From: Clostridia bacterium
Lineage (GTDB): Bacteria; Bacillota; Clostridia; Christensenellales; UBA1242
Length of the DNA: 64,000 bases
Direction: 5' to 3'
Assembly: GCA_050872785.1 (NCBI GenBank)
Contig: JBNMHO010000004.1
Location: forward strand, 15,432-79,431
Position numbers and translations under genes: made by a program. The first letter of the stretch is position 1, and every line of letters starts with the position of its first letter. Below, one piece after another: positions 3,362 to 34,644 of the stretch. The notes beneath the pieces were generated by a model. That model ran no database searches. It had not been told where the DNA came from and was given only the letters and a program-made list of their open reading frames with translations.

Positions 3362-3478
3362 GTGTTTTTTTCAGTTTAATTTTCGTTTGTCCAGTTTTAT
3401 TTGATATTTGTTCAAAAATCACTGTTTTTTTGATGAAAAAACACCATTTTTTGTTATGTTTTTTAGCATAATTTTGCA

Positions 3479-4219
3479 TTAATTTTCATATTCAACACTT
3501 TCAAGATAAAGTCCGCACGCTTTGGCGGTTCTCCCAACGTCACTCCGTTTGCCACCTAATAGGCTTTTTTCAAAACTTTCAAATGTTCTTTTGTGTGTTC
3601 CCACTTCAAGCATTGTGCCAACCAAAATTCGCACCATATTATATAAAAAGCCATTGCCAGTGATGTGGAAATATAGATATTCTCCGTCTTGCTCAAGAGT
3701 TGCAGAATAAATTGTTCTAACTGTTGTTGAAGTGCTGGCACCGCTTGCGACATATGATGAGAAATCGTGCTCGCCGACAAGAGCCTTTGCACATTTGTTC
3801 AAGAGTTTAATGCCAAGTTTTCGTGGATAATGCAATGCTCTATCTTCGTCAAAAACACTCATTGTGTCACCAGTATAGATTTTGTAAAGATAGGTCTTTT
3901 TCTTTGCCGACTTGCGAGCGTTGAAGTTTAAATCTCGCTCTTTTGCGTCAACAACTCTTATGTCTTTTGGCAAGTGTTGATTTATAACGATTTTAAGTTT
4001 GCTTGTTGGAATTGAACCACCATACATAAAGTTTGCAACTTGTCCCAAAGCATGCACACCAGCGTCAGTTCTGCCACTGGGAGTTAGACTTACTTTTTCT
4101 TTTGTCGCTTCAAAAATTGCTTCTTCCAAAACTTCTTGAACGGACAAGCCATTTTTCTGTCTTTGAAAGCCACAATAATTTGTGCCAAGATACTGAATTG
4201 TTAGTGATATGTTCTTCAT
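3479..4219 (-). CDS. truA: tRNA pseudouridine(38-40) synthase TruA
   Basis: 246 aa with the GRTDAGVHA catalytic Asp motif and FLYNMVR. Confidence 0.94.
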   Translation of the reverse strand: MKNISLTIQYLGTNYCGFQRQKNGLSVQEVLEEAIFEATKEKVSLTPSGRTDAGVHALGQVANFMYGGSIPTSKLKIVINQHLPKDIRVVDAKERDLNFNARKSAKKKTYLYKIYTGDTMSVFDEDRALHYPRKLGIKLLNKCAKALVGEHDFSSYVASGASTSTTVRTIYSATLEQDGEYLYFHITGNGFLYNMVRILVGTMLEVGTHKRTFESFEKSLLGGKRSDVGRTAKACGLYLESVEYEN

Positions 4220-4416
4220 GCCGCTATTTTAACACATTTTTTTCAAAATAACAATCTCTTGAGTGTTTTTCTCCCCAAAAGTTTGTGTTTCTAAATTTTG
4301 CTAGGATAATAGAATTCTCTCCTCTTTTTTGGAAAATTGATTCAAATAATTGACTATTCAGAAGAAAAAGTCGTTTAGCATAAGTTATTTTTGACAAAAA
4401 TTACACCGCAATATGT

Positions 4417-14951: not shown

Positions 14952-16714
14952 ATTTCATCATCTCCCATGCTATACAGTGCTTTAAGTTGACTTAAGAGTT
15001 CTCGTTTTATTATTTCAAACTCACCAAGAGAATTTTCGTCAATATATTTTGCACGTGCGATTTTTTGCTTTGCTCTCATGGACAAAAGTTCGTTTATGCC
15101 AATGCCGTCAGAAATTGCCTTCATGCAACTGTCATAATAAAGTTTTATGACTTCAAGCATTTTGCATTGTTTTTTAAGTGAAGAATAGGTGTCCACTGGG
15201 TCAAAAGCGTTTTGGTGCAAAAAATCTTCCCTTATCATTTTTGCCACATCAAGAGTTAGTCTATCTTTGCTTGAAAGAGAGTCTGCCCCTACGAGTCTTA
15301 TAATTTCAAGAAGCGAACCTTCTTCTTGAAGGATATTCATAACAAAAGCCTTAAGCCCCGCAAAATTTGTAGAAACATTATTTTCAAACCAAGGTGCAAG
15401 TTGAGTGGAGTAAAGCGAATAACTTTGGAGCCAGTCGATTGCTGGGAAGTGTCTTTTGTATGCAAGGCTTGAACTTAGCCCCCAGAAAGTTTTAACAACA
15501 CGCAAAGTTGCTTGCGACACAGGTTCACTTAGGTCACCCCCCGGAGGTGACACCGCTCCAATAACTGTGACAGAGCCTTTTCTGGGTTTTGTCCCAAGGG
15601 TTTCCACAAGCCCTGCTCTTTCATAGAACTCTGCCAGTCTGCTGGACAAATATGCTGGATATCCTTCGTCCCCCGGCATTTCTTCAAGTCGTCCGCTCAT
15701 TTCTCTTAATGCTTCTGCCCAGCGAGATGTGGAGTCTGCCATAAGAGCAACATTATATCCCATATCACGAAAATATTCTGCAATAGTTATTCCAGTGTAA
15801 ATTGACGCTTCCCTTGCAGACACTGGCATATCCGAAGTGTTTGCAATAAGAATTGTTCGTTTTATAAGTGGCTGTTTTGTCTTTGGGTCAAGAAGTGTTG
15901 GAAATTCATTCATAACGTCTGTCATTTCGTTTCCACGTTCGCCGCAGCCAATGTAAACAATGATATCCGCATCAGCCCATTTTGCAAGTTGATGTTGAAC
16001 AATAGTTTTTCCACTGCCGAATGGCCCCGGAACACCCGCAACACCGCCCCTTGCTATTGGGAAAAGTGCATCAATAACCCTTTGACCAGTGACCATTGGC
16101 TCCACAAGTGGAAGCTTTTTTGCATATGGTCTATTTCGTCTTATGGCACACTTTTGAAGCATTTGAATATTAAAAGTCTTGTTTCCATTTTTCAAAACAG
16201 CAACTATGTCGTCAATTTTGAAGTCGCCTTCTTCAATTTTTTCAACAACACCGCTTGCTCCTTGTGGCACGAGAATTTTGTGTCTTATGGCTATTGTTTC
16301 ATCAACATATCCCAGTTCGTCACCGCTTTCAAGACTTTCACCCACTTTGCAAGCTGGATAAAAATGCCAAAATTTTGTCCTATCAAGCGAGTTTGCTTGC
16401 ATGCCACGAACAATTCTATTTCCAAACTTTTCTCTCAGTTCGTCAAGCGGTCTTTGTATGCCGTCAAAAATTCTTCCTACAATGCCAGGCGCAAGTTCCA
16501 CAGACAATGGCTCGCCCGTTGACACAACTTCTTCCCCAACAGAAAGCATTGATGTATCTTCATACACTTGAATGGAGGCTATGCCATTTCTCATTTCTAT
16601 AATTTCGCCCGTAAGCATAAGTTTGCCTATTTTCACCACATCAAAAAGCCGACAATCTTGCATATTATCTGCTTGAACTAGTGGTCCTGACACTTTGACA
16701 ATTTTACCCTTCAT
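14948..16714 (-). CDS. ntpA: V-type ATP synthase catalytic subunit A
   Basis: Walker [27 protein letters not shown] take ATG 16714 ([23 protein letters not shown]) rather than the longer track ORF. Confidence 0.95.
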
Positions 16715-26035: not shown

Positions 26036-26120
26036 GTGGATATGGTGAAACTGGTAAACACGCTAGATTCAGGTTCTAGTGAGGCGACTCTTGCAGGTTC
26101 AAGTCCTGTTATCCACACCA
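26036..26120 (+). tRNA. tRNA-Leu (anticodon CAG), long variable arm, encoded CCA
   Basis: Acceptor GTGGATA/TATCCAC. Anticodon stem CTAGA/TCTAG with loop TTCAGGT. Variable arm GAGGCGACTC. T arm GCAGG-TTCAAGT-CCTGT. Discriminator A plus CCA. Confidence 0.9.
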
Positions 26121-26126
26121 CCCGTC

Positions 26127-26150
26127 AAAAAGCCCAATCGGGCTTTTTTT
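26127..26150. terminator. Perfect hairpin terminator after tRNA-Leu; also carries the left copy of the island direct repeat
   Basis: AAAGCCC-AATC-GGGCTTT flanked by an A-run and T7. Confidence 0.8.
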
Positions 26151-26177
26151 AAATTAAGTTTACGCTTTTGTTTATGA

Positions 26178-26519
26178 TTATAAAACAACCTCTCTGTTGA
26201 CAAATAAAGATATTATAAAACATATTATTGAATAATGAACAAATGTTAAACCAAAGCCAGCAAATATACCCGTAAAAAATCGCCTAATATTTGTTGACTC
26301 CATACCCAAAAATCTTTGAACAGTCCAATCAGCTGCCATTGGAATTAATAATAGCAAACACCACAATATTTTTATCTTTAGAAAAAATACTAACGGAATT
26401 GCAATAATTTCACCAACAAAAACACCAGTACACCTAGCACAAACTGGGAATTGGTAACCTCTGATAAAAAAACTTCTAGAATACATCTGATGACAACCTA
26501 AAAATCTCCCGATTTTCAT
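26178..26519 (-). CDS. DUF2085 family membrane protein
   Basis: GCHQMYSRSFFIRGYQFPVCARCTGVFVGE matches the DUF2085 signature (CHQ..RSF...G...P.CARCTG). Has 3-4 TM helices. I prefer the internal ATG 26519 over 26597, which overlaps the upstream gene by 50 nt. Confidence 0.7.
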   Translation of the reverse strand: MKIGRFLGCHQMYSRSFFIRGYQFPVCARCTGVFVGEIIAIPLVFFLKIKILWCLLLLIPMAADWTVQRFLGMESTNIRRFFTGIFAGFGLTFVHYSIICFIISLFVNREVVL

Positions 26520-26547
26520 AAAGAATAACCATGTTGTTATTTTCCTA

Positions 26548-26757
26548 TCACACTCTCCATTTGTTTCCACAGTTTTCACACACCCAATAATTTTCATTGT
26601 TTATCTGTCTTCCTTTCCCGCAAGCACCACATAGCAAACCTAAAGGACCGAATAATAAAGCTCCCAAACAACCTGTGCCAGCTTTATAATCTTTTCCTTC
26701 CGAAGATACTTCATTTATTATCTTACATTTATCACTATTACATTTTGGGCAATTCAC
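26548..26757 (-). CDS. Small zinc-ribbon membrane protein with LITAF-like architecture
   Basis: 69 aa: CPKC...C knuckle, hydrophobic GCLGALLFGPLGLLCGACG, then CENC knuckle. GTG start 6 nt after AAGGAG. Confidence 0.6.
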   Translation of the reverse strand: MNCPKCNSDKCKIINEVSSEGKDYKAGTGCLGALLFGPLGLLCGACGKGRQINNENYWVCENCGNKWRV

Positions 26758-26819
26758 ATTAAACTCCTTCCTAAACTTAATAAATTTGTTTGTTAATTTT
26801 ATTTCTTTAAGAATTATTA

Positions 26820-26869
26820 TACACTATTTTTAGTGTATGTCAAGTATTTTACACTAATTTCGGTGTAAA
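26820..26869. promoter_or_regulatory. Two operator-like palindromes in the divergent XRE / zinc-ribbon promoter region
   Basis: TACACTA-TTTT-TAGTGTA (26820-26837) and TTTACAC-TAATTTCG-GTGTAAA (26848-26869) share the half-site TACAC/GTGTA. Confidence 0.55.
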
Positions 26870-26877
26870 ATAAAAAT

Positions 26878-27087
26878 ATGAGAACTTTTGGACAAAATTT
26901 GAAAGAATTAAGGGTTTTAAGCGGGCTAAATCAAAAGCAATTCGCCACTCTCATGCGTACAACACAACAAAGAGTGAGTGAATGGGAAACAAACAAAATT
27001 GAGCCTTCTTTGTATAACATTCTAAAAATTTTAAAAGTTCTGAATGTCAGTTTTGACGAATTAACAGAAGGAATAAATGTTGAATAA
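26878..27087 (+). CDS. XRE-family helix-turn-helix transcriptional regulator
   Basis: 69 aa, NLKELRVLSGLNQKQFATLMRTTQQRVSEWE, typical of the Cro/CI HTH. Confidence 0.85.
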   Translation: MRTFGQNLKELRVLSGLNQKQFATLMRTTQQRVSEWETNKIEPSLYNILKILKVLNVSFDELTEGINVE

Positions 27088-27196
27088 TTGATAAAAAATT
27101 ATTCTTCCCTAGTAACGCTAACAAAAGCACACAGATTATATAAAACAAAAAAGCCCAAGGTTTAAAACATTTGAAACTAGTGTAATTTTATATCAA

Positions 27197-27233
27197 CAAA
27201 AAAAGAAGACGTTCAGAATATGTCTTCTTTTTT
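27197..27233. terminator. Bidirectional terminator between the XRE and DegV genes
   Basis: A7, AGAAGAC-GTTCAGAATAT-GTCTTCT, T5. Confidence 0.7.
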
Positions 27234-27270
27234 ACTATATATAACTTGCTATATTTTCACTTGCACTCTT

Positions 27271-28143
27271 TTATAGTTTCCCATTTTTATCAAAAATATG
27301 CTTTCCCCAAAATCCAACAATAACACCATTTTTTTCTGCATAATAACTGCAAAGCCCTCTTGTTGGCATAATTTTTATTTTTGCTTTATGCCAAATTTCT
27401 TGTATTTTTAATTTTAACTTTTCTGCAAAGTTTAAATTATGACAATGTGAAATAACAACCGAATGTGGATATATAACCCTTGTTTCAATATCTTCGACAA
27501 TTGTTTTAAGAGCTTGTTTTTCTCCTTTAACCTTTTTTATTACCTTTATAGTTCCCTCATCAGTGGCAATTCCGACACCCCATATACCTAATAGCTTAGC
27601 AAGTTTACCTATGAATTTAGACATTCTTCCAGCTTTAACTAAATTATCAAATGATGATAATGTAAATGTAATTCTGGATTCATTTAAAAATTCTTTTGCT
27701 AAACTTATAACTTCATCAAAATTTTTATTTTCTTTTATTAGTTCACATATTTTTTCAACCAACAAAACAATTTCTGGACCTGTGCTTTTAGAATCTATTA
27801 TCACAATATTTCTATCTGCATATTTGTTTAATATCATATTCTTAGCAATTGTTGCACTATTTAAACTACCAGATAAATTAGCTGAAATTGTAATTAAAAT
27901 GTAGTTTCCATCTTCTTCCATTTCTTTATACCAATCATAAGGTGATGGGCAAGCTGTTCCAACTTTATCTTTTGTTTGAGATATATCTTCCAATAAAAGC
28001 TTGGTATCTATATTTGGATTATCTATGATAGTTTTATTTCCAATATTAAAAGCAAAAGGAACGGTTGTGAATTTTATATTATCTTCTTGTATTTCAAAAT
28101 CATTCAAATCTGAACTACTATCAGTTATTATATGCCATTTCAT
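27271..28143 (-). CDS. DegV family (FakB-like) fatty-acid-binding protein
   Basis: 290 aa: MKWHIITDSSSDL, ACPSP, LITISANLSGSLNSA, IIDSKSTGPE. Typical DegV pattern. Confidence 0.88.
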   Translation of the reverse strand: MKWHIITDSSSDLNDFEIQEDNIKFTTVPFAFNIGNKTIIDNPNIDTKLLLEDISQTKDKVGTACPSPYDWYKEMEEDGNYILITISANLSGSLNSATIAKNMILNKYADRNIVIIDSKSTGPEIVLLVEKICELIKENKNFDEVISLAKEFLNESRITFTLSSFDNLVKAGRMSKFIGKLAKLLGIWGVGIATDEGTIKVIKKVKGEKQALKTIVEDIETRVIYPHSVVISHCHNLNFAEKLKLKIQEIWHKAKIKIMPTRGLCSYYAEKNGVIVGFWGKHIFDKNGKL

Positions 28144-28188
28144 ATTTTATTCTCCTTAATTATTCTTGACTATATAATGTTATTTTTA

Positions 28189-28204
28189 TATACTATATAG
28201 TATA
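28189..28204. promoter_or_regulatory. Perfect 16-bp palindrome (candidate TetR operator) between the DegV and TetR genes
   Basis: TATACTATATAGTATA is its own reverse complement. Confidence 0.5.
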
Positions 28205-28297
28205 CACAACCATAGTTGTCTAAGCAATAATATTTGCCACCTTATGTCCCACCAATATTTAAAAAGAGTTGGATAAACTAATAATAGGAGAAAAGAT

Positions 28298-28816
28298 ATG
28301 AATAAAAACGACCTAAGATTTCAAAAAACTGAACAAATTATTAAATCAACTTACAATGATTTAAAAAAGAAATCCTATACCTTAGTGAAAGTTAAAGATT
28401 TATGCGATAAGGCAATGATAAACAAAACAACATTTTATTCTCATTATGAAACAATGGATTTATTACATAAACAAGTTTGTTTGGATTTTATTTCTGATAT
28501 GATTAAACAATATAAACCAATAGAGAATATTCAAAGCAATATAAAAGATTTTATTTACTCGGTTTATGATTTATTTATGAAAAACCAAACAACAATAGCC
28601 AGATTATATGGAGAAGATACTTCATCACTAGTAAATGATGTTGAAAAAGTAATAATGGATTTGGGAATGTTTAAAGATATGGACGAAGATTTAGAACTTA
28701 TTACTCGTTTTTGTATAGGTGGAGCTTCAAGATTTTTAGTTTATGAAAAAAAAACAATAAGAATTAGTAAGATGATTCAATTGATTGAAAATATTTTTAA
28801 AAGTGGAAAATTATAA
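28298..28816 (+). CDS. TetR/AcrR family transcriptional regulator
   Basis: 172 aa with an N-terminal HTH (VKVKDLCDKAMINKTTFYSHYETMDLL). Confidence 0.85.
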   Translation: MNKNDLRFQKTEQIIKSTYNDLKKKSYTLVKVKDLCDKAMINKTTFYSHYETMDLLHKQVCLDFISDMIKQYKPIENIQSNIKDFIYSVYDLFMKNQTTIARLYGEDTSSLVNDVEKVIMDLGMFKDMDEDLELITRFCIGGASRFLVYEKKTIRISKMIQLIENIFKSGKL

Positions 28817-28829
28817 AATGGCAGTTAGG

Positions 28830-28887
28830 CGTGTGCTTGTCTTGATACAAGTCGGTGTCGCTTCGCTCCACCGAAGACAAGCACACG
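28830..28887. repeat. GC-rich two-level hairpin (14-bp outer stem)
   Basis: CGTGTGCTTGTCTT (28830-28843) pairs with AAGACAAGCACACG (28874-28887). Inner stem CGGTG (28853-57) pairs with CACCG (28869-73). Confidence 0.7.
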
Positions 28888-28925
28888 GACACAAAAACAA
28901 TTAAACAAAAAGGCATAGACAAACA

Positions 28926-28993
28926 TTGCCGAGTGAAAAAGAGGTTTGCGCGCAGGCTTTCCGCAAAACCTCTTTTTTTTTACCACTCGGCAA
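28926..28993 (+). terminator. Long composite palindrome containing a strong intrinsic terminator downstream of the TetR gene
   Basis: Outer arms TTGCCGAGTG (28926-35) and CACTCGGCAA (28984-93). Inner arms GAGGTTTGCG (28941-50) and CGCAAAACCTC (28962-72), followed by T9. Confidence 0.7.
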
Positions 28994-29200
28994 ATTGTAT
29001 TGTAATTTGTTCTCAAATTTCAATTTTGTTGTTTCAAAGACATTTTTCAAATACATACCTATGAGCAAAGTTAATGCTCTAGTTATTCCAAAATCATTAA
29101 AGTATATTTTCCTTACTCAATCTCCTTTACTCGCTTTTGGTGTCTTTTGTAGCATAGTTTTCCCCTAAGTCAAGGGAAATAAATATTGTTTTGTGCAATC

Positions 29201-29232
29201 TACTAGATTGAATATTCAGTCTAGTATTTTTT
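29201..29232 (+). terminator. Hairpin plus T-run upstream of the sigma-like gene (terminator-like; role unclear)
   Basis: TACTAGA-N12-TCTAGTA followed by T6. Confidence 0.4.
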
Positions 29233-29365
29233 ATTGCAAAAATATTTCAATACAATATTTCTTTCTTCTTCCTTGACTTCTTGTATTAGAAATTTAAAGG
29301 TTATGTTTTGTATCCAAACCATGCTCCAACGCCACTTGCCAAAAGGCGGATAAAGGAGAAAATAT

Positions 29366-29995
29366 ATGAACAAAAGAAAAAATGAAATATTAGAAGAAAA
29401 TGTTGTAATTAGTTTAGACAACATTGAAAAAATCTCAAAAGTAATTGCACTAGCAAGTCTAAGAAACTTCGTAAAGTATGCTTACTCTAACTCAAAAAGA
29501 ATTGAAACATTACACAAGCAATTACAAAAAGACATTTATCTTCATAACGAATTGGACACATATTCTGATGCTTACGATTTAGTCCAAGAAGCAAGTTTGT
29601 TCCTATTGAAATTTGTAGGTCAAAGACTTGGAGATACTTGCACATTTATTAAACCTACTGCAAAAGCTCCACAAACAATTTCAATTAGAATGGCTTGTTT
29701 TAAGACTCTTTCTGCATATCTTAGAAAAGAAATGAAGAATGGAAACTCAGAAAACGAAGAATTACTTGAATATATTCCAGCAAAAGATTGTTTTGAAGAA
29801 GAAAAACCAGATTATACAAAAGTTAACGAAATCATAAAGAAAATTGTAACTAACAAATTGGAAAGTCAAATTTTAGAGTATTACTACAATGGTGTTGAAG
29901 TAAAACTTATTGCCGAATTTTTAGGAGTTAGCACAGACATTGTTTACAAACGCAGAAGAAAATTTAAAGATAGATATTTAGCATATTGCATATAA
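29366..29995 (+). CDS. Sigma-70 family-like protein (regions 2 and 4 only), of the kind found on mobile elements
   Basis: 209 aa. AYDLVQEASLFLLKF resembles region 2. The C-terminal LESQILEYYYNGVEVKLIAEFLGVSTDIVYKRRRKF is a region-4 HTH. RBS AAAGGAG. Confidence 0.65.
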   Translation: MNKRKNEILEENVVISLDNIEKISKVIALASLRNFVKYAYSNSKRIETLHKQLQKDIYLHNELDTYSDAYDLVQEASLFLLKFVGQRLGDTCTFIKPTAKAPQTISIRMACFKTLSAYLRKEMKNGNSENEELLEYIPAKDCFEEEKPDYTKVNEIIKKIVTNKLESQILEYYYNGVEVKLIAEFLGVSTDIVYKRRRKFKDRYLAYCI

Positions 29996-30005
29996 CTTAA
30001 CAAAC

Positions 30006-30032
30006 AGAGTGTGTAAAAAGCACTCTTTTTTT
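30006..30032 (+). terminator. Rho-independent terminator after the sigma-like gene
   Basis: AGAGTG-TGTAAAAAG-CACTCT followed by T6. Confidence 0.7.
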
Positions 30033-30316
30033 GTTAAGGAATATCAAGTAATAACAAGTTTAGTTTGGGTAAATGCTAAGTAAAGTTGTTTTTTGTATAG
30101 GTAAAGTACAAGTTAAGTCATTACATTTTGTTAATAACTTGTGCTAAAGTAAAAACGGAAATAAAAAGACAACGCAAAAATGACTAAACCGAGAAGATAG
30201 TTTATTGGTTTGCTTTTAGCCAAAATTAAAAGCCAGTGGTTGCATTTTATGGGCGTAGAAAAGAAAACTTTTCTATGTCCTTTTTAATTCCAAATTTACA
30301 AAAAGGAGTTAAAAAT

Positions 30317-30451
30317 ATGCAAAAACTAAAAATTGAATTTGAAAACGAATTAGATTTAACACTTCTAGACAATGAATTTTTTGTTGCAATACTAAATCAA
30401 ATTATGTTGTTCAAAAAATGCGAGGTGCAATATGGACTATCCCAAAACTAA
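30317..30451 (+). CDS. Small hypothetical protein (44 aa) overlapping the rep start
   Basis: ATG 30317 follows AAAGGAG with 8-nt spacing. It overlaps rep by 20 nt, suggesting translational coupling. No recognisable motif. Confidence 0.4.
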   Translation: MQKLKIEFENELDLTLLDNEFFVAILNQIMLFKKCEVQYGLSQN

Positions 30452-31313
30452 AGTATATTTTGATGGTAGTCATTTTATTGGAATACCACCTGAAAAACAA
30501 ATATGGAAGAAACGAAAAAACACAAAAGCAAAACAAAAAGATGAAATACAAGAAAAAGTTAAGGAATTGTATAAGGAAGAAGCAGGAACAAAGAAAGAAA
30601 AAACTGAAAAAATTATTGAAAAATTAACTGAAGAAATTAAAGATGAAGAAAAAGCTAAAGAGATTGTTAAAGCAACTTTAGAAAAGGAAAAGAGAAATAA
30701 AATTGTTAGACTTACGAGATTGTATAGAAAAATTGGACTGCAACAATGGACACACTTTTGCACTTTTACTTACGATGGAAATAAACTAACCGAAGAAGAA
30801 TTTAGACAAAAATTACTTACTTGTTTAAGACATCTATCTCATAGAAAATGCTGGAAATATATTGGTGTGTTTGAGCGTAGCCCAAAACTAGAGAGATTAC
30901 ATTTTCATGGAATATTTGTAATTACTGAAATGGTTGGCGAGATTATTGAAACAAAAGATTACTCTACTAAAACACATCAAATGCAGATTACTCATCAAAA
31001 CACATTCTTTTTAGAGAGATTTGGGAGAAACGATTTTAAAGAAATAATCAACAATGTTGGTGTAAATGACGCAGTTAATTATATTATGAAATACATTCAC
31101 AAAACTGGAGAAAAAGTTATTTATTCTAAGCACTTACAAACATATTTTGTTACAGACATTTTAGACGATGATGTTGTTTGCAAAATTGGTCAAGAAGATA
31201 GAAAAATATTACTTTTCGACGATTTCAAATGTTTAGATTTTGAAACTGGCGAAATTTTAGGTCAACCTAACAAGGATAAATCTCTCATAGAAAAACTACC
31301 CAAAGCTTATTGA
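30432..31313 (+). CDS. rep: HUH-superfamily rolling-circle replication initiator (two-tyrosine, phiX174 gpA-like motif set)
   Basis: Motif I FCTFTY (aa 109-114), motif II HFH in LHFHGIF (aa 157-159), motif III YIMKYIHK (Y217/Y221; compare phiX174 YVAKYVNK). The first 100 aa are Lys/Glu-rich. RBS GAGGTG. Confidence 0.75.
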   Translation: MDYPKTKVYFDGSHFIGIPPEKQIWKKRKNTKAKQKDEIQEKVKELYKEEAGTKKEKTEKIIEKLTEEIKDEEKAKEIVKATLEKEKRNKIVRLTRLYRKIGLQQWTHFCTFTYDGNKLTEEEFRQKLLTCLRHLSHRKCWKYIGVFERSPKLERLHFHGIFVITEMVGEIIETKDYSTKTHQMQITHQNTFFLERFGRNDFKEIINNVGVNDAVNYIMKYIHKTGEKVIYSKHLQTYFVTDILDDDVVCKIGQEDRKILLFDDFKCLDFETGEILGQPNKDKSLIEKLPKAY

Positions 31314-31315
31314 TT

Positions 31316-31457
31316 GTCTTTCGGTTACAGAGCATAAACGAAAATTCTTTCTTGTCAAGGGTAAAATGTATTGATTCTCAACCCTTGACAAGAAAATTAA
31401 GACTTTAAGAATTAAGAAAACAATCCATTTTCGTTTCTTTTCGCTCTGTCGAAAGAC
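31316..31457. repeat. 142-bp nested imperfect palindrome between rep and the recombinase gene (candidate origin/nick-site structure)
   Basis: Four pairings: GTCTTTCG (31316-23) with CGAAAGAC (31450-57); CAGAGC (31328-33) with GCTCTG (31443-48); AAACGAAAA (31336-44) with TTTTCGTTT (31428-36); TTCTTGTCAAGGGT (31349-62) with ACCCTTGACAAGAA (31381-94). The central loop is 18 nt. Confidence 0.75.
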
Positions 31458-31492
31458 AAAAAATAAAACTTAATAAAAGGAGAAAAAACAAA

Positions 31493-32998
31493 GTGAAAAC
31501 AGCAGTAATATATGCAAGATATTCCAGCACTAACCAAACTGAGCAGTCTATCGAAGGTCAAGTTCATGTTTGCGAAGACTATGCTAAAAAACACGATATA
31601 ATTATTGTAGATTCATACATAGACCGAGCAATATCTGGAACAACAGACAACAGAGAATCTTTTCAAAAAATGCTTAAAGATAGCAACAATAAAAAATGGG
31701 ATTATGTTTTGGTATATAAGCTAGATAGGTTTGCAAGAAATAAGTTTGAGTCCGCAATTCATAGAAAGCATTTGAAGGATAACGGAATAAAACTTCTATC
31801 TGCTATGGAAAACATTCCAGAAACACCTGAAGGAGTATTACTTGAATCTTTGCTTGAAGGAATGAACCAATACTTCAGCGAAGAACTTGCTCAAAAAGTT
31901 AGTCGTGGACTTCACGAATCTCGAATGAAAGGACATATAATAGGCTCAGTTCCGTATGGTTACATCAAAGAGAATAAAATGTTAATAGTGAATGAAGAAG
32001 AAAAGCAAATTTTAACAAGAATGTTTGAAGATTATGCAAGTGGTAAAACGATATTACAAATTTCAAGAGATTTTGAAAAAGAAAATATTACTAATAAAGG
32101 TAGTAAATTCCTACCCCAAAATATACGAAGAATATTACAAAAAGAAGCATATACAGGTATTTGCAGAATTAACAACAAAATTTACGATAAAATCTATCCA
32201 CAAATAATTTCACAAGACTTATTTGAAAAAGTAAAAACAAAATTAGATGCAAATAAGTATGGTTGCAGAAAAGATAATCACGAGATTTTTAGACTTAAAG
32301 ACAAAATATATTGTGGTAATTGCAATCGCAAAATGTATCCAGTGTCTGCAATTTCTTCTAATGGTAATGCTATTAGATATTACAAATGTATAACCACAAA
32401 AAAGAAAAATTGTTTAACTGGAATAATAGAAAAGAACTATATTGAAAACATAATAGACAAATTCTTAATATCTCAGTTTAATATTCCAAAAAACTTAAAT
32501 GAAATTTCAGAAAAGATATTTGAAATACATAAAAAGAGAGTTGGAAATAATAACTCTCTCAACTCACTTAAAAATGATTTACAAAAAACTAACACTTCAA
32601 TTTCAAACATTATGTCTGCAATTGAAAAAGGAATACTTACCGACACCACAAAACAACGACTTGAAGAATTGGAACACCAAAAGAAAGACTTACAAGAAAA
32701 ACTAATAATAGAACAATCTAAACAGCAATTTGAACTCACAAAAGAAGATATACAAAACTACTTTAAATTTACAATGAAACAATGCCCAGATAGAGCCATT
32801 GAACTATTTATTCAAAAAGTTAATGTCTATGAGGATAAAATAGAAATATCTCTAAACTACTCACTAAATACAAACATCTCCAAAATCGAAACCACATCTA
32901 AAAAACTTTTCACCGAAACCTTTACATCGACTCGCAAATTCAAAGGCGGAACAATTAAAACAACAAACAAAGTCTATGAAGTTTATTTGGTAATTTAA
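31493..32998 (+). CDS. Large serine recombinase (resolvase catalytic domain, recombinase domain, zinc ribbon, coiled coil)
   Basis: AVIYARYSSTNQ (catalytic Ser region), YKLDRFARN, zinc ribbon CGNCNRKM...YYKCITTKKKNC, then a heptad-rich segment. GTG start after AAAGGAG. Confidence 0.9.
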   Translation: MKTAVIYARYSSTNQTEQSIEGQVHVCEDYAKKHDIIIVDSYIDRAISGTTDNRESFQKMLKDSNNKKWDYVLVYKLDRFARNKFESAIHRKHLKDNGIKLLSAMENIPETPEGVLLESLLEGMNQYFSEELAQKVSRGLHESRMKGHIIGSVPYGYIKENKMLIVNEEEKQILTRMFEDYASGKTILQISRDFEKENITNKGSKFLPQNIRRILQKEAYTGICRINNKIYDKIYPQIISQDLFEKVKTKLDANKYGCRKDNHEIFRLKDKIYCGNCNRKMYPVSAISSNGNAIRYYKCITTKKKNCLTGIIEKNYIENIIDKFLISQFNIPKNLNEISEKIFEIHKKRVGNNNSLNSLKNDLQKTNTSISNIMSAIEKGILTDTTKQRLEELEHQKKDLQEKLIIEQSKQQFELTKEDIQNYFKFTMKQCPDRAIELFIQKVNVYEDKIEISLNYSLNTNISKIETTSKKLFTETFTSTRKFKGGTIKTTNKVYEVYLVI

Positions 32999-33070
32999 AA
33001 ATATCCAACATTGTAACAAACAAAATATCTTATCAGCAAATATATATTCTCACAAAACATTCATAGAAAA

Positions 33071-33113
33071 AGAGCATACTCTAGGGAGACTCCTAAAATA
33101 TGCTCTTTATTTC
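33071..33113 (+). terminator. Hairpin after the recombinase gene (weak T-tract)
   Basis: AGAGCATA (33071-78) pairs with TATGCTCT (33099-106), with an inner GGAG/CTCC pairing, then TTTATTT. Confidence 0.45.
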
Positions 33114-33171
33114 TTAGAAAATACTGCTAGTTTCAAACAGCATTGACTAATCGGGCTTTTTTTTGTAGGTT

Positions 33172-34644
33172 TTATTTCATTAGTGGGAACAAGACAACAT
33201 CACGGACTGATTCTTGGTTGGTGAGGAGGCACATAAGTCTGTCCACGCCAAAGCCAAGTCCAGAGATTGGTGGCATGCCGTGTTCCATAGCATTTAGGAA
33301 GTCTTCGTCAAGTTCCATTGCTTCGTCATCGCCTTCTGTTCTTGCTTTTGCTTGTTCTTCAAGTGTTTGACGTTGAACTATTGGGTCAACGAGTTCTGAA
33401 TAAGCCTTGCAGATTTCGTCCCCGCAGACCAAAACTTGGAACAAGTCAATTCTTCTTGCATCTTCGTCATTTCTTCTTGCAAGAGGCACAAGGCATGCTG
33501 GATAGTTATAGAGGACTGTTGGTTGAATGATATTTTCCCTAATTTTTCTCTTATAAACAAGGTCAATAACTCCGCCAACTGTTTTGCAAGCGTCAAAGTC
33601 GTCCATTGAGAAAAGACCAGTTTTTACAATGTCTTCTTTAAGTTTTTGGGCATTTGTATATTCAAGAATATTAAGCCCCAAAATTTCGTTGACACGCTCT
33701 GTGTAGTTAATTCTTTCAAAGTCTTTTGAAAAGTCGAGAGTGTGTCCCTTAAATTCAATTTTCAAGTCTTCGTTGCAAATAGTTCTAATCGCTTCCCTAA
33801 TGAATTTTGTGAAGAATTTGATATTATCTTCAAAATTCCAGTAGGCAGCATACCATTCGACCATTGTAAATTCTTGCAAGTGGCTTGGGTCCATGCCCTC
33901 ATTTCTGAAGCATTTTGCCACTTCAAAAACTCTGTCGAACCCGCCAGCGATGACGTGTTTTAGATAGACTTCTGGTGCAATTCTGAGGTTACAGATTTTG
34001 TTTAGTGCGTTGTGTTTTGTAAAGAAAGGTTTTGCACTTGCTCCGCACACTGCACTTTGCAAAATAGGTGTTTCTACTTCCAAAAAGCCGTTTTCATTGA
34101 GAAAATTCCTGAGGAATGACAAAAATTTGCTACGTTTTAGGAAAACTTGTCTGCTTTCTTCGTTTGACACCAAGTCCATGCAACGTTCCCTATATCTTTG
34201 GTCTTGATTTGTAAGCCCATGGTGTTTTTCTGGAAGAGGCAAAATGGCTTTTGACAAGAGTTCATAGTCTGCAACACGCACAGTTTTTTCGCCTGTTTGG
34301 GTGGTGTAAAGTTCGCCCTCTATGCCAACAAAGTCGCCAATGTCAACCATTTTCTTGAAGAAAGTGTATTTGTCTTCGTCAATTTCATTACGACTGATAC
34401 TTGCTTGAAGTCTTGCTTCCACGTCTTCAAGTGCAAAAAAACTGAGTTTGCCCATAATGCGTCTGAAAGTCATTCTTCCGCAAACTCTAACTTTTGTGCC
34501 ATCTGGCAAAGATTTCGCTTCCACAAGTTTGTGAGTTCTTTCGAACTTCTCTGCGTAAACAATTTTGCCTTCTTCTTTAAGTTTTCTAACTTTTTCCTTT
34601 CTAATATCTACTTCGCTTGATAGATTTTGTATATTGTTGTCCAT
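33172..34644 (-). CDS. lysS: Lysyl-tRNA synthetase, class II
   Basis: 490 aa: OB-fold N-terminal domain, FLEVETPIL, FRNEG, GLGFGVDRL. Confidence 0.96.
   Translation of the reverse strand: MDNNIQNLSSEVDIRKEKVRKLKEEGKIVYAEKFERTHKLVEAKSLPDGTKVRVCGRMTFRRIMGKLSFFALEDVEARLQASISRNEIDEDKYTFFKKMVDIGDFVGIEGELYTTQTGEKTVRVADYELLSKAILPLPEKHHGLTNQDQRYRERCMDLVSNEESRQVFLKRSKFLSFLRNFLNENGFLEVETPILQSAVCGASAKPFFTKHNALNKICNLRIAPEVYLKHVIAGGFDRVFEVAKCFRNEGMDPSHLQEFTMVEWYAAYWNFEDNIKFFTKFIREAIRTICNEDLKIEFKGHTLDFSKDFERINYTERVNEILGLNILEYTNAQKLKEDIVKTGLFSMDDFDACKTVGGVIDLVYKRKIRENIIQPTVLYNYPACLVPLARRNDEDARRIDLFQVLVCGDEICKAYSELVDPIVQRQTLEEQAKARTEGDDEAMELDEDFLNAMEHGMPPISGLGFGVDRLMCLLTNQESVRDVVLFPLMK

Follow-up and report, generated by a model that had tools for sequence, protein, structure and literature searches.

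Why a phage-type rolling-circle initiator should stand beside a large serine recombinase (LSR) in a bacterial chromosome is the question raised by contig JBNMHO010000004.1 of a Clostridia bacterium (assembly GCA_050872785.1; Christensenellales). The region was studied in a window of 64,000 nucleotides (positions 15,432 to 79,431 of the contig, forward strand), and all coordinates below refer to this window unless a locus handle precedes them. A first-pass annotation had described a mobility module at 29366-32998, consisting of a sigma-like gene, a terminator, a 44-codon open reading frame (ORF), a Rep of 293 amino acids (aa) with HUH motifs, a large palindrome, and a 501-aa LSR. All of these were found in place in the ORF map and the sequence, but the mobile unit proved to be larger, namely an integrated element of 5,990 bp (27159-33148) of which the flagged genes are the conserved core; its cargo, ends, and target had been missed. 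Sequence comparison indicates that this element is real and recently mobile, since near-identical elements occupy many sites and an empty site is found in the same species. The comparison also shows an LSR-type insertion into a terminator loop, an intact Rep and LSR, and a conserved structured site. Of greatest interest is that the multi-targeting LSR of a very abundant, unannotated family lands in terminator loops.

Extent and ends of the element

The element was located in a low-GC island of approximately 26.1-33.1 kb, with a GC content of 27-32% compared with 37-40% across most of the remaining window. The island is flanked by a tRNA-Leu gene (26036-26120) on the left and by the 3' end of lysS (33172-34644, minus strand) on the right. 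From left to right, the element comprises a DegV gene, a TetR-like gene, two structured non-coding regions, the sigma-like gene, the small ORF, the Rep gene, the palindrome, and the LSR gene (Table 1).

The ends of the element are inverted 22-nt arms, each of which places TTTGAAACTAG 11 nt from an AA dinucleotide (27157-27158 and 33149-33150), and the inverted partner of the right end, GGTTTAAAACATTTGAAACTAG, was found at 27159-27180. When 43 Rep-relative loci were aligned to the window, the conserved backbone always started at approximately 28810-28820. In the closest relatives, it ended exactly at ...CTAGTTTCAAACAGCATTGACTAA (window 33150), and the flanks past that point varied by locus. Such split arms with a dinucleotide are the anatomy expected of an LSR attP that was parted into attL and attR. 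Accordingly arranged, the attP was reconstructed, as a putative sequence, as CTAGTTTCAAACAGCATTGACT-AA-GGTTTAAAACATTTGAAACTAG, with GCATTGACTAAGGTTTAAAAC as its junction sequence.

A 15-bp repeat, AATCGGGCTTTTTTT (26136-26150 and 33149-33163), was also considered as the direct repeats of a 7.0-kb element. It was rejected as an LSR boundary because the conserved right end pairs with 27159-27180 and because the relatives have no long repeats. The repeat reflects a second, intact copy of the terminator.

Insertion into terminator loops

The target was determined from empty sites, which were reached via contigs encoding an identical DUF1292 protein, the neighbor of lysS; an exact look-up of the LysS protein gave no match. 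These contigs (L054-L061) were assigned to the same or a closely related species because the DUF1292 neighbor is identical. In them, tRNA-Leu, AAAAAAGCCCAAACGGGCTTTTTT, and lysS follow one another uninterrupted, with one terminator only. Therefore, the intervening DNA of the window is an insertion, and the terminator loop is its target. When the flanks in the window were joined, CAAAAAAGCCC-AA-TCGGGCTTTTTTTT formed a perfect A-tract/hairpin/T-tract.

The same architecture was observed at other insertion sites. In eight of the ten relatives with both ends paired, the rebuilt attB was an A-tract/hairpin/T-tract, with seven of the hairpins at -10 to -16 kcal/mol. Crossover was at AA, or at TA in one subgroup, and this dinucleotide lay at the loop centre or at most 1 nt off. 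All 20 distinct right flanks contained a T-run starting 3-16 nt from the junction, and a run of at least five T was present in 18 of them, compared with 8.7% of random positions (binomial P ~1e-17). The stem sequences of the targets differed, the distance from the crossover to the T-run being approximately 6 to 11 nt, and the flanking genes converge on the insertion site in both the window and L009. Moreover, eight elements with LSRs 93.8-100% identical were inserted in eight different terminators, beside lysS, rplQ, a tRNA gene, and others. These eight sites of near-identical LSRs, taken together with the terminator pattern, mark the LSR as multi-targeting, with intrinsic bidirectional terminators as its class of target. 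Instead of one set sequence, the enzyme may recognise the palindromic layout of A-tract, stem, and T-tract, or a hairpin that is extruded. Literature searches turned up no serine recombinase described as targeting terminators.

A far-reaching reading of the whole, which we put forward tentatively and consider doubtful, is that the 501-aa LSR recognises intrinsic bidirectional terminators as a class and that the excised island amplifies as a phage-style rolling circle. Its lifestyle would then lie between those of an integrative and mobilizable element (IME), a rolling-circle replication (RCR) plasmid, and a single-stranded DNA (ssDNA) phage satellite, and the family would be a main vehicle of restriction and defence genes in uncultured gut Clostridia. 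If terminators are recognised in this manner, each genome would offer hundreds of harmless landing sites to a tiny Rep-bearing island. Landing in terminator loops would be a new form of "safe-harbour" targeting and would explain the near-identical elements at many loci; it could also interest engineers of serine integrases.

The Rep protein

The first-pass annotation had assigned the Rep to the HUH family from three rolling-circle motifs. These are present as WTHFCTFTY, RLHFHG, and NYIMKYIHK, and the family assignment agrees with the Pfam profile PF23343 (REP_ORF2-G2P), whose gathering score of 27.8 is exceeded at 39.8 bits. The likeness of motif 3 to that of phiX174 gpA also holds, because the A protein of phiX174 (NC_001422) contains FYVAKYVNKK. 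The initiators of four Microviridae genomes were scanned with PF23343, SpV4 being translated with code 4, and the profile matched phiX174 gpA at 33 bits and the gokushovirus Reps of phiMH2K, Chp2, and SpV4 at 70-76 bits. In 43 Rep sequences, down to 29% identity, F109, T111, T113, H157, H159, Y217, K220, Y221, and K224 were invariant, and these are exactly the catalytic positions.

The AlphaFold2 (AF2) model of the Rep had a predicted local distance difference test (pLDDT) score of 92.9. Its high-probability fold matches in the PDB were HUH nuclease domains of viral Reps, all with weak E-values: those of circoviruses, geminiviruses, and nanoviruses had probabilities of 0.84-0.97 but E-values of 0.07-0.3, and a vientovirus Rep was matched as well. 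A fold search of the BFVD yielded 120 matches at E<=1e-3; the named ones were mostly microvirus replication initiators, and the probability was 1.00 among the 50 matches listed. Searches of the PDB by sequence and by profile returned low-complexity or coiled-coil noise only. Among 50,697 phage records, one weak match was obtained at the BLAST level, to an unverified 57-kb scaffold in which dnd-like, non-viral genes follow the Rep-like gene. Overall, the sequence data indicate that the Rep is an intact Microviridae-type HUH enzyme under purifying selection, and that the element carrying it is free of viral genes.

Residues 1-103 (30432-30740), which precede the HUH domain, form a family-specific N-terminal region. 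It was modelled with high confidence as a beta-hairpin of conserved sequence (KVYxDGSHYxAIP) and three long helices rich in K/E. No match of this region to a known domain was found.

The large serine recombinase

The LSR matched PF00239 (1e-28), PF07508 (1.5e-15), and PF13408 (6e-7) in Pfam and the integrase family phrog_95 (7.5e-95). Its sequence also matched two catalytic domains of known structure, from the TP901-1 integrase (3bvp) and from a putative conjugative-transposon recombinase (3g13). DUF4368 was absent from its Pfam matches at E<=0.1. The LSR is intact in the relatives, where its reading frame is kept.

A second recombinase type, an LSR of 541 aa that is 43% identical overall, was observed in the same backbone (L003:3591-11711 and L004:3592-11711). 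The first ~440 nt of its gene lie within a continuous DNA match of ~87% identity, and the divergent part corresponds to window 31936-32998. The L003 and L004 elements are bounded by TGGCGGAGAG direct repeats, the right copy of which leads into a tRNA-like GGGATTCGAACCC segment. Past GGGATTCGAACCC, L003 and L004 no longer share the same sequence, which would fit two separate tRNA genes. From these sequences, it looks as though the DNA-binding part of the LSR was swapped, changing the target class.

Conserved non-coding structures

The hairpin at 28831-28886 is the most conserved non-coding element of the family. The stretch 28819-28886 was 84-100% identical in relatives whose genes are ~70-75% identical, making it the best-conserved DNA of the family. 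The hairpin reached 100% identity against gene identities of ~73%, and compensatory changes were found at four of its pairs. The fold of 28815-29010 had an energy of -48 kcal/mol and z = -8.2. The unpaired stretch of the hairpin is CTTGATACAAGT, and it is in this hairpin that CTTGATA (28841-28847) has its single plus-strand occurrence in the element. This heptamer is presumably the nick consensus of the pC194 family too. It is likewise the sequence at the annotated origin of phiX174, where position 4306 follows CAACTTG (NC_001422), a sequence match that is suggestive. The hairpin is thereby the best candidate for a putative nick site or origin, either a double-strand origin (dso) or an origin of transfer (oriT); alternatively, it may be a single-strand origin (sso) or a packaging signal.

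The palindrome between the Rep and LSR genes is the other structured site. Its ssDNA fold had an energy of -35.7 kcal/mol and z = -7.5, with compensatory changes in relatives, and its inner arms are TTGACA boxes that face both ways, just 5' of the LSR start. Because the arms coincide with these -35-like boxes, a promoter/operator of the LSR gene appears at least as likely as a double-strand origin.

Downstream of the first hairpin, the second long hairpin (28927-28993) is terminator-like, lies between the cargo and the core, and is only ~76-78% conserved in relatives. It could be an insulator or a site of nested insertion, the latter being conceivable because the recombinase of the family targets such structures.

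Proposed life cycle and alternative explanations

On balance, we lean slightly towards a small integrative element of ~6 kb that is inserted in a terminator loop by its LSR, is excised, replicates as a Rep-driven rolling circle, and is mobilised via a helper. The first step is shown by the comparison: the LSR recombined the attP of the element with the palindromic tRNA-Leu/lysS terminator as attB, at the AA in the loop. In the proposed later steps, the same LSR, probably together with a directionality factor, would excise a circle of 5,992 bp. The two-tyrosine Rep would nick a conserved origin, for which the CTTGATA-bearing hairpin is the best candidate, and would drive rolling-circle replication of the excised circle. 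Nicking and ssDNA production by the Rep would probably let the element ride a co-resident conjugative element, in line with earlier proposals on IMEs whose relaxases are of the Rep type. In ICEs and IMEs, Rep-type proteins combine the parts of relaxase and replication initiator, or are proposed to do so (PMC5704250). The Rep operon would be regulated by the hairpin preceding the 44-aa ORF and by the sigma-like protein in those elements that have it, and the palindrome overlapping the -35 boxes would regulate the LSR gene.

The first-pass annotation had likewise suggested an element that lives integrated and becomes a rolling circle after excision. The integrated state is borne out by the empty sites and the LSR att-type ends, whereas the rolling circle met with several contrary results. 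The attP junction had zero matches when JGI metagenome contigs and IMG/VR were scanned for it exactly, and the same-strain contigs, which were found via HTH_3 and DegV, contained the integrated form only, with no excised circle. No coupling protein, oriT of a known type, helper element, or recombination directionality factor was identified. The two nick sites (28831-28886 and 31316-31457) are candidates predicted from sequence, and the palindrome 3' of rep could equally be the origin in place of the upstream hairpin. Moreover, TATATAC or CATATAC stands in place of CTTGATA in the more distant relatives, and chance alone should produce a given 7-mer ~0.7 times over the two strands of a 6-kb sequence. 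No PLSDB plasmid carries a relative of the Rep, and autonomous replication of such circles is therefore undocumented.

A pure IME was weighed as well, in which the Rep would be only a conjugative relaxase acting at an oriT, with no autonomous replication, and the coupling protein and type IV secretion system (T4SS) of a helper plasmid or integrative and conjugative element (ICE) would be needed. The element is small and cargo-rich like IMEs, and the scans of all its ORFs agreed with the earlier statement that no relaxase of a canonical family, T4SS, or capsid gene is present. The gene lists of the relatives likewise contained no T4SS. In streptococci, IMEs with the phage RCR domain PHA00330 in their putative relaxases have been described (Coluzzi 2017, PMC5357655; Guedon 2017, PMC5704250), and their phage-like Reps were read as relaxases because they are associated with integrases and coupling proteins (PMC5357655). 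However, all 21 of these IMEs use tyrosine integrases and 19 of the 21 carry the TcpA coupling protein (PMC5357655, PMC5704250), while a coupling-protein gene was found in none of the ~50 relatives examined here and no helper was seen. The relaxase role of this Rep type is itself a proposal only, according to both studies. We therefore regard a pure IME as unlikely, albeit worth serious consideration.

Less probable again is a satellite of a filamentous or microvirus-like ssDNA phage, in which the Rep would make ssDNA circles for packaging by a helper phage, the hairpin would be the packaging signal, and the LSR would integrate the product in a lysogeny-like manner. RS1 and TLC, satellites of the filamentous phages of vibrios, would be an analogue. 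Such a lifestyle would suit a Rep whose nearest structural and profile relatives are ssDNA-phage initiators and a family in which a non-coding hairpin is conserved above all else. Inoviruses are known that are integrated and have serine recombinases (PMC6813254), and distant Rep relatives occur in integrase-bearing units rich in large ORFans that might be viral. On the other hand, no LSR-type relative contained capsid, structural, morphogenesis, or lysis genes, and the 6-12 kb of these relatives exceeds the 4.4-5.4 kb of the Microviridae genomes examined. The single weak match among the phage records, with its dnd cargo, and the missing attP junction in IMG/VR also speak against a satellite. 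That nothing here is mobile, the Rep being left from a prophage or plasmid by chance beside an unrelated recombinase, is very improbable. No excised form was found, and the Rep is truncated in L043 and the LSR split in L065; nevertheless, the degraded genes that the first-pass annotation had named as the sign of a dead remnant were not the rule in relatives, in which Rep and LSR are intact and conserved, the catalytic residues are invariant, and synteny is kept from 95% to 45% Rep identity. The many independent insertions of elements ~90% identical in DNA and the empty site in the same species are equally at odds with decay. Two-tyrosine HUH enzymes include the IS91-family transposases, and an IS91/Helitron-like rolling-circle transposon, a comparison already raised in the first-pass annotation, was accordingly considered, in which the Rep would move the element and the LSR would only resolve multimers or invert DNA. 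This too can hardly be credited: the symmetric inverted arms around a 2-nt identity and the precisely rebuilt target are the signature of a serine recombinase attP x attB reaction, the serine recombinase, having both a Recombinase and a zinc-ribbon domain, is a complete LSR, and a swapped C-terminal part of the LSR goes with a changed target class.

Comparison with known systems

The annotation had suggested that this may be a poorly described class of elements. This is true insofar as the relatives are named only "hypothetical protein", but the kind itself was already reported in streptococci (PMC5357655, PMC5704250), and what is new here is the recombinase, the lack of a coupling protein, and the target. 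The streptococcal PHA00330 IMEs (class 3), which ICEscreen treats as an IME superfamily (PMC9585547), are similarly small, integrated, and devoid of a T4SS, with an outward-facing integrase at one end and variable cargo. In both groups, the phage-type Rep is the sole DNA-processing enzyme besides the integrase, its function being inferred in both. In contrast, the present elements have an LSR, no coupling protein, and terminator-loop targets, and their hosts are uncultured gut Clostridia/Christensenellales. It is plausible that PF23343 is the equivalent of PHA00330, because both describe phage RCR initiators; the two were compared by description only. Several of the traits by which IMEs are defined (Guedon 2017) were found in the element, namely its own integration/excision module, defined boundaries, absence from related genomes, and no VirB4/T4SS. 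By analogy, it is proposed that its Rep would be a relaxase hijacking the mating pore of a helper. Thus described, the recruitment of phage-type Reps by integrative elements extends to another phylogenetic group and another recombinase, without a coupling protein.

The recombinase was compared with characterised groups in the same manner. TnpX and TndX of Tn4451 and Tn5397 are grouped with the multi-targeting large serine recombinases. The multi-targeting LSRs were defined by Durrant et al. 2022 (PMC10083194), with DUF4368 in 63% of the clade, and one of them has a TT core, T/A-enriched flanks, and 21 attB sites. As here, one lineage of these enzymes uses many sites, and the TT core is AA on the other strand. 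Unlike that clade, the present LSR has no DUF4368 and targets terminators of A-tract/stem-loop/T-tract form, in which it crosses over at the centre of the loop; PMC10083194 makes no mention of terminators, hairpins, or palindromes. IME_Rho_tet of gut Bacillota/Firmicutes (~10 kb; PMC12904643) is alike by description in its LSR at the 3' end and its terminal inverted repeats of ~21 bp, with the boundary 81-90 bp past the recombinase stop compared with 150 bp here. It differs in having a relaxase and MobC, a relaxosome accessory factor, but no HUH Rep, and its cargo is tet(W)/tet(32).

With the Microviridae initiators (phiX174 gpA and gokushovirus VP4/ORF4/ORF2), the Rep shares PF23343, the three motifs including YxxKYxxK, and the best fold matches, whereas its N-terminal region is different and it belongs to an integrated, cargo-carrying element with no capsid or other viral gene. 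A Microviridae or inovirus prophage does not fit, as no capsid or morphogenesis gene was found beside the Rep in the element or in its LSR-type relatives. Neither does a rolling-circle plasmid of the pC194/pUB110 type: the element is chromosomally integrated, and tblastn of the Rep against 72,556 PLSDB plasmids gave no match. In ICEBs1/Tn916, MobT is one Rep-like enzyme that is both conjugative relaxase and the rolling-circle initiator maintaining the excised element (PMC5704250). Unlike the present Rep, MobT is of the Rep_trans family, unrelated to HUH, and its elements are self-transmissible.

Family, hosts, and cargo

The Rep family comprised 3,478 matches among 90%-identity clusters. An exhaustive search of 50%-identity representatives yielded 698 Rep clusters at E<=1e-3 and 156 at <=1e-30, and one sister cluster alone had 2,870 members. 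Every source name seen was "hypothetical protein". The records were metagenome-assembled genomes (MAGs) of Christensenella, Christensenellales, uncultured Clostridia, Oscillospiraceae, and Candidatus Onthoplasma from human and ruminant gut. The four-gene module of the first-pass annotation recurs in part: the order of small ORF, Rep, and LSR was found at dozens of loci, with Rep identities of 95% down to 45%, but the sigma-like gene is facultative. This recurrent order shows that the module is not a chance juxtaposition. An abundant "hypothetical" family in poorly cultured gut Clostridia thereby gains a testable anatomy, consisting of ends, attP, target class, candidate origin, and small ORF. 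Different members were seen as pairs in the same MAG, namely L022 with L033 (CALWNC01) and L023 with L031 (CAMEUD01), at 66-74% Rep identity to the window; one genome, or one bin, can therefore harbour more than one element of the family.

The cargo lies to the left of the hairpin at 28831-28886 and is variable, with restriction or defence genes in most relatives examined. DpnII with Dam and N4/N6 methylases, Dcm with Dam and HNH, GmrSD, HicB, an SMC_N/AAA_21 ATPase, and dndB/C-like genes were observed (cargo loci L009:3838-8382, L003:3686-6969, L051:2528-8335, L044:10222-17572, and L001:4155-6116). Considering the restriction-modification, GmrSD, Dnd-like, and SMC/AAA cargo, the family is a plausible route of defence-gene exchange in the gut. 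The DegV/TetR cargo of the window is atypical, and PADLOC detected no defence system in it; one relative carries a MatE transporter.

A distant relative of the Rep (33% identity, PF23343) was observed at the end of a ~10-kb unit (L067-L070, 1-9849; L044:6400-9630). The unit encodes a tyrosine integrase, a Cro/CI-like repressor, and ORFans of 172, 153, 62, 502, 184, 621, and 704 aa, none of which had a Pfam or PHROG match. A similar ORF of 714 aa lies upstream of a Rep-like gene on the phage-labelled scaffold MT835493. The unit could be an integrated ssDNA virus that has so far escaped recognition; alternatively, it could be an IME whose coupling protein is of an unfamiliar type.

Sigma-like protein and small ORF

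The first-pass annotation had read sigma-70 regions 2 and 4 in the 209-aa protein. On the structural side, most of the top 30 PDB fold matches of the AF2 model (pLDDT 79) were extracytoplasmic function (ECF) sigma factors, but at weak E-values of 0.009-1, and the predicted C-terminal domain resembled sigma region 4 with a probability of 0.92-0.98 and a template-modelling (TM) score of 0.6-0.8. Curated profiles did not recognise such regions: no Pfam sigma domain was found in the protein or its 26 homologues, TIGR02937 scored 19.8 bits (E = 4.6e-4), below the cut-off of 42.9, and a profile search of PDB sequences gave no sigma match. The family conserves YSDAYDLVQEASLFL and a C-terminal helix-turn-helix, and the DAYDLVQEASLFL motif is kept. 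"Sigma-like" is a reasonable, if tentative, description. In L003-type relatives the gene is missing, window 29062-29846 being simply absent there.

The frame of the 44-aa ORF is open and its LDLSLLDNEFFVAMLN core conserved in relatives down to ~45% identity, and this conservation argues that it is a real gene. Its product would be an accessory factor and is a candidate for the recombination directionality factor. The terminator-like hairpin ahead of it is a possible attenuator of the Rep operon. An Rfam match to caiA at 30248-30319 coincides with this 13-bp hairpin, and it was treated as chance since its score of 30.7 bits (E = 0.045) is below the gathering score of 55.5; apart from it, the Rfam scan detected tRNA only.

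Table 1. Positions of the element, its ends, and adjoining features in the window.
Feature	Position	Strand	Remarks
Intact tRNA-Leu/lysS bidirectional terminator	26127-26150	+	AAAAAGCCCAATCGGGCTTTTTTT; directly after tRNA-Leu
Segment S	26151-27146		DUF2085 (26178-26597, -), Zn-ribbon ORF (26548-26757, -), HTH_3 (26878-27087, +)
attL, host side	27147-27158	+	Left half of split terminator AAAAAAGCCC + crossover AA (27157-27158)
P' arm, left end of element	27159-27180	+	GGTTTAAAACA + TTTGAAACTAG; inverted repeat of right end; motif also bounds relatives
DegV-family protein (cargo), 290 aa	27271-28143	-	PF02645, E = 5.7e-48
TetR-like regulator (cargo), 172 aa	28298-28816	+	Weak TetR_N match
Most conserved non-coding element of family	28831-28886	+	11-bp outer stem, 4-bp inner stem, 2 further predicted pairs; GATACAAGT unpaired
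Second long hairpin	28927-28993	+	TTGCCGAGTG...CACTCGGCAA enclosing A-tract/stem/T-tract; moderately conserved
Sigma-70/ECF-like protein, 209 aa	29366-29995	+	Facultative in family
Intrinsic terminator	30006-30033	+	Hairpin + T-run, after sigma-like gene
Terminator-like hairpin	30251-30280	+	13 pairs, then TTTTT; just 5' of small ORF
Conserved 44-aa ORF	30317-30451	+	Overlaps Rep start
HUH Rep, 293 aa	30432-31313	+	Catalytic tyrosines Y217 and Y221; Microviridae type
Conserved extended palindrome	~31316-31457		Inner hairpin 31349-31394; arms with TTGACA -35-like boxes on both strands
LSR, 501 aa	31493-32998	+	Resolvase + Recombinase + Zn_ribbon_recom
P arm, right end of element	33127-33150	+	CTAGTTTCAAA + CAGCATTGACT + crossover AA (33149-33150)
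Right half of split terminator	33151-33164	+	TCGGGCTTTTTTTT; lysS stop just past

Adjoining segments

Segment S is part of the 7.0-kb insertion relative to the empty sites, yet it lies outside the ends of the Rep/LSR element. This segment of ~1 kb (GC 32%), with its Cro/CI-type HTH_3 gene, is situated between two copies of the terminator, the intact one (26127-26150) and the one that the element splits. It was missing at the empty sites and was always seen alongside the element, and its left edge carries no end motif of the family. Either co-integration with the element or a separate origin is conceivable, the latter as a now decayed islet for which the terminator was the att core.

In L003, a 202-bp direct repeat (L003:32-232 and 3387-3588; 92% identical) brackets a 3.2-kb segment that encodes a HATPase_c_3 protein and adjoins the L003 element on its left. 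This repeat suggests tandem accretion of islands at one site.

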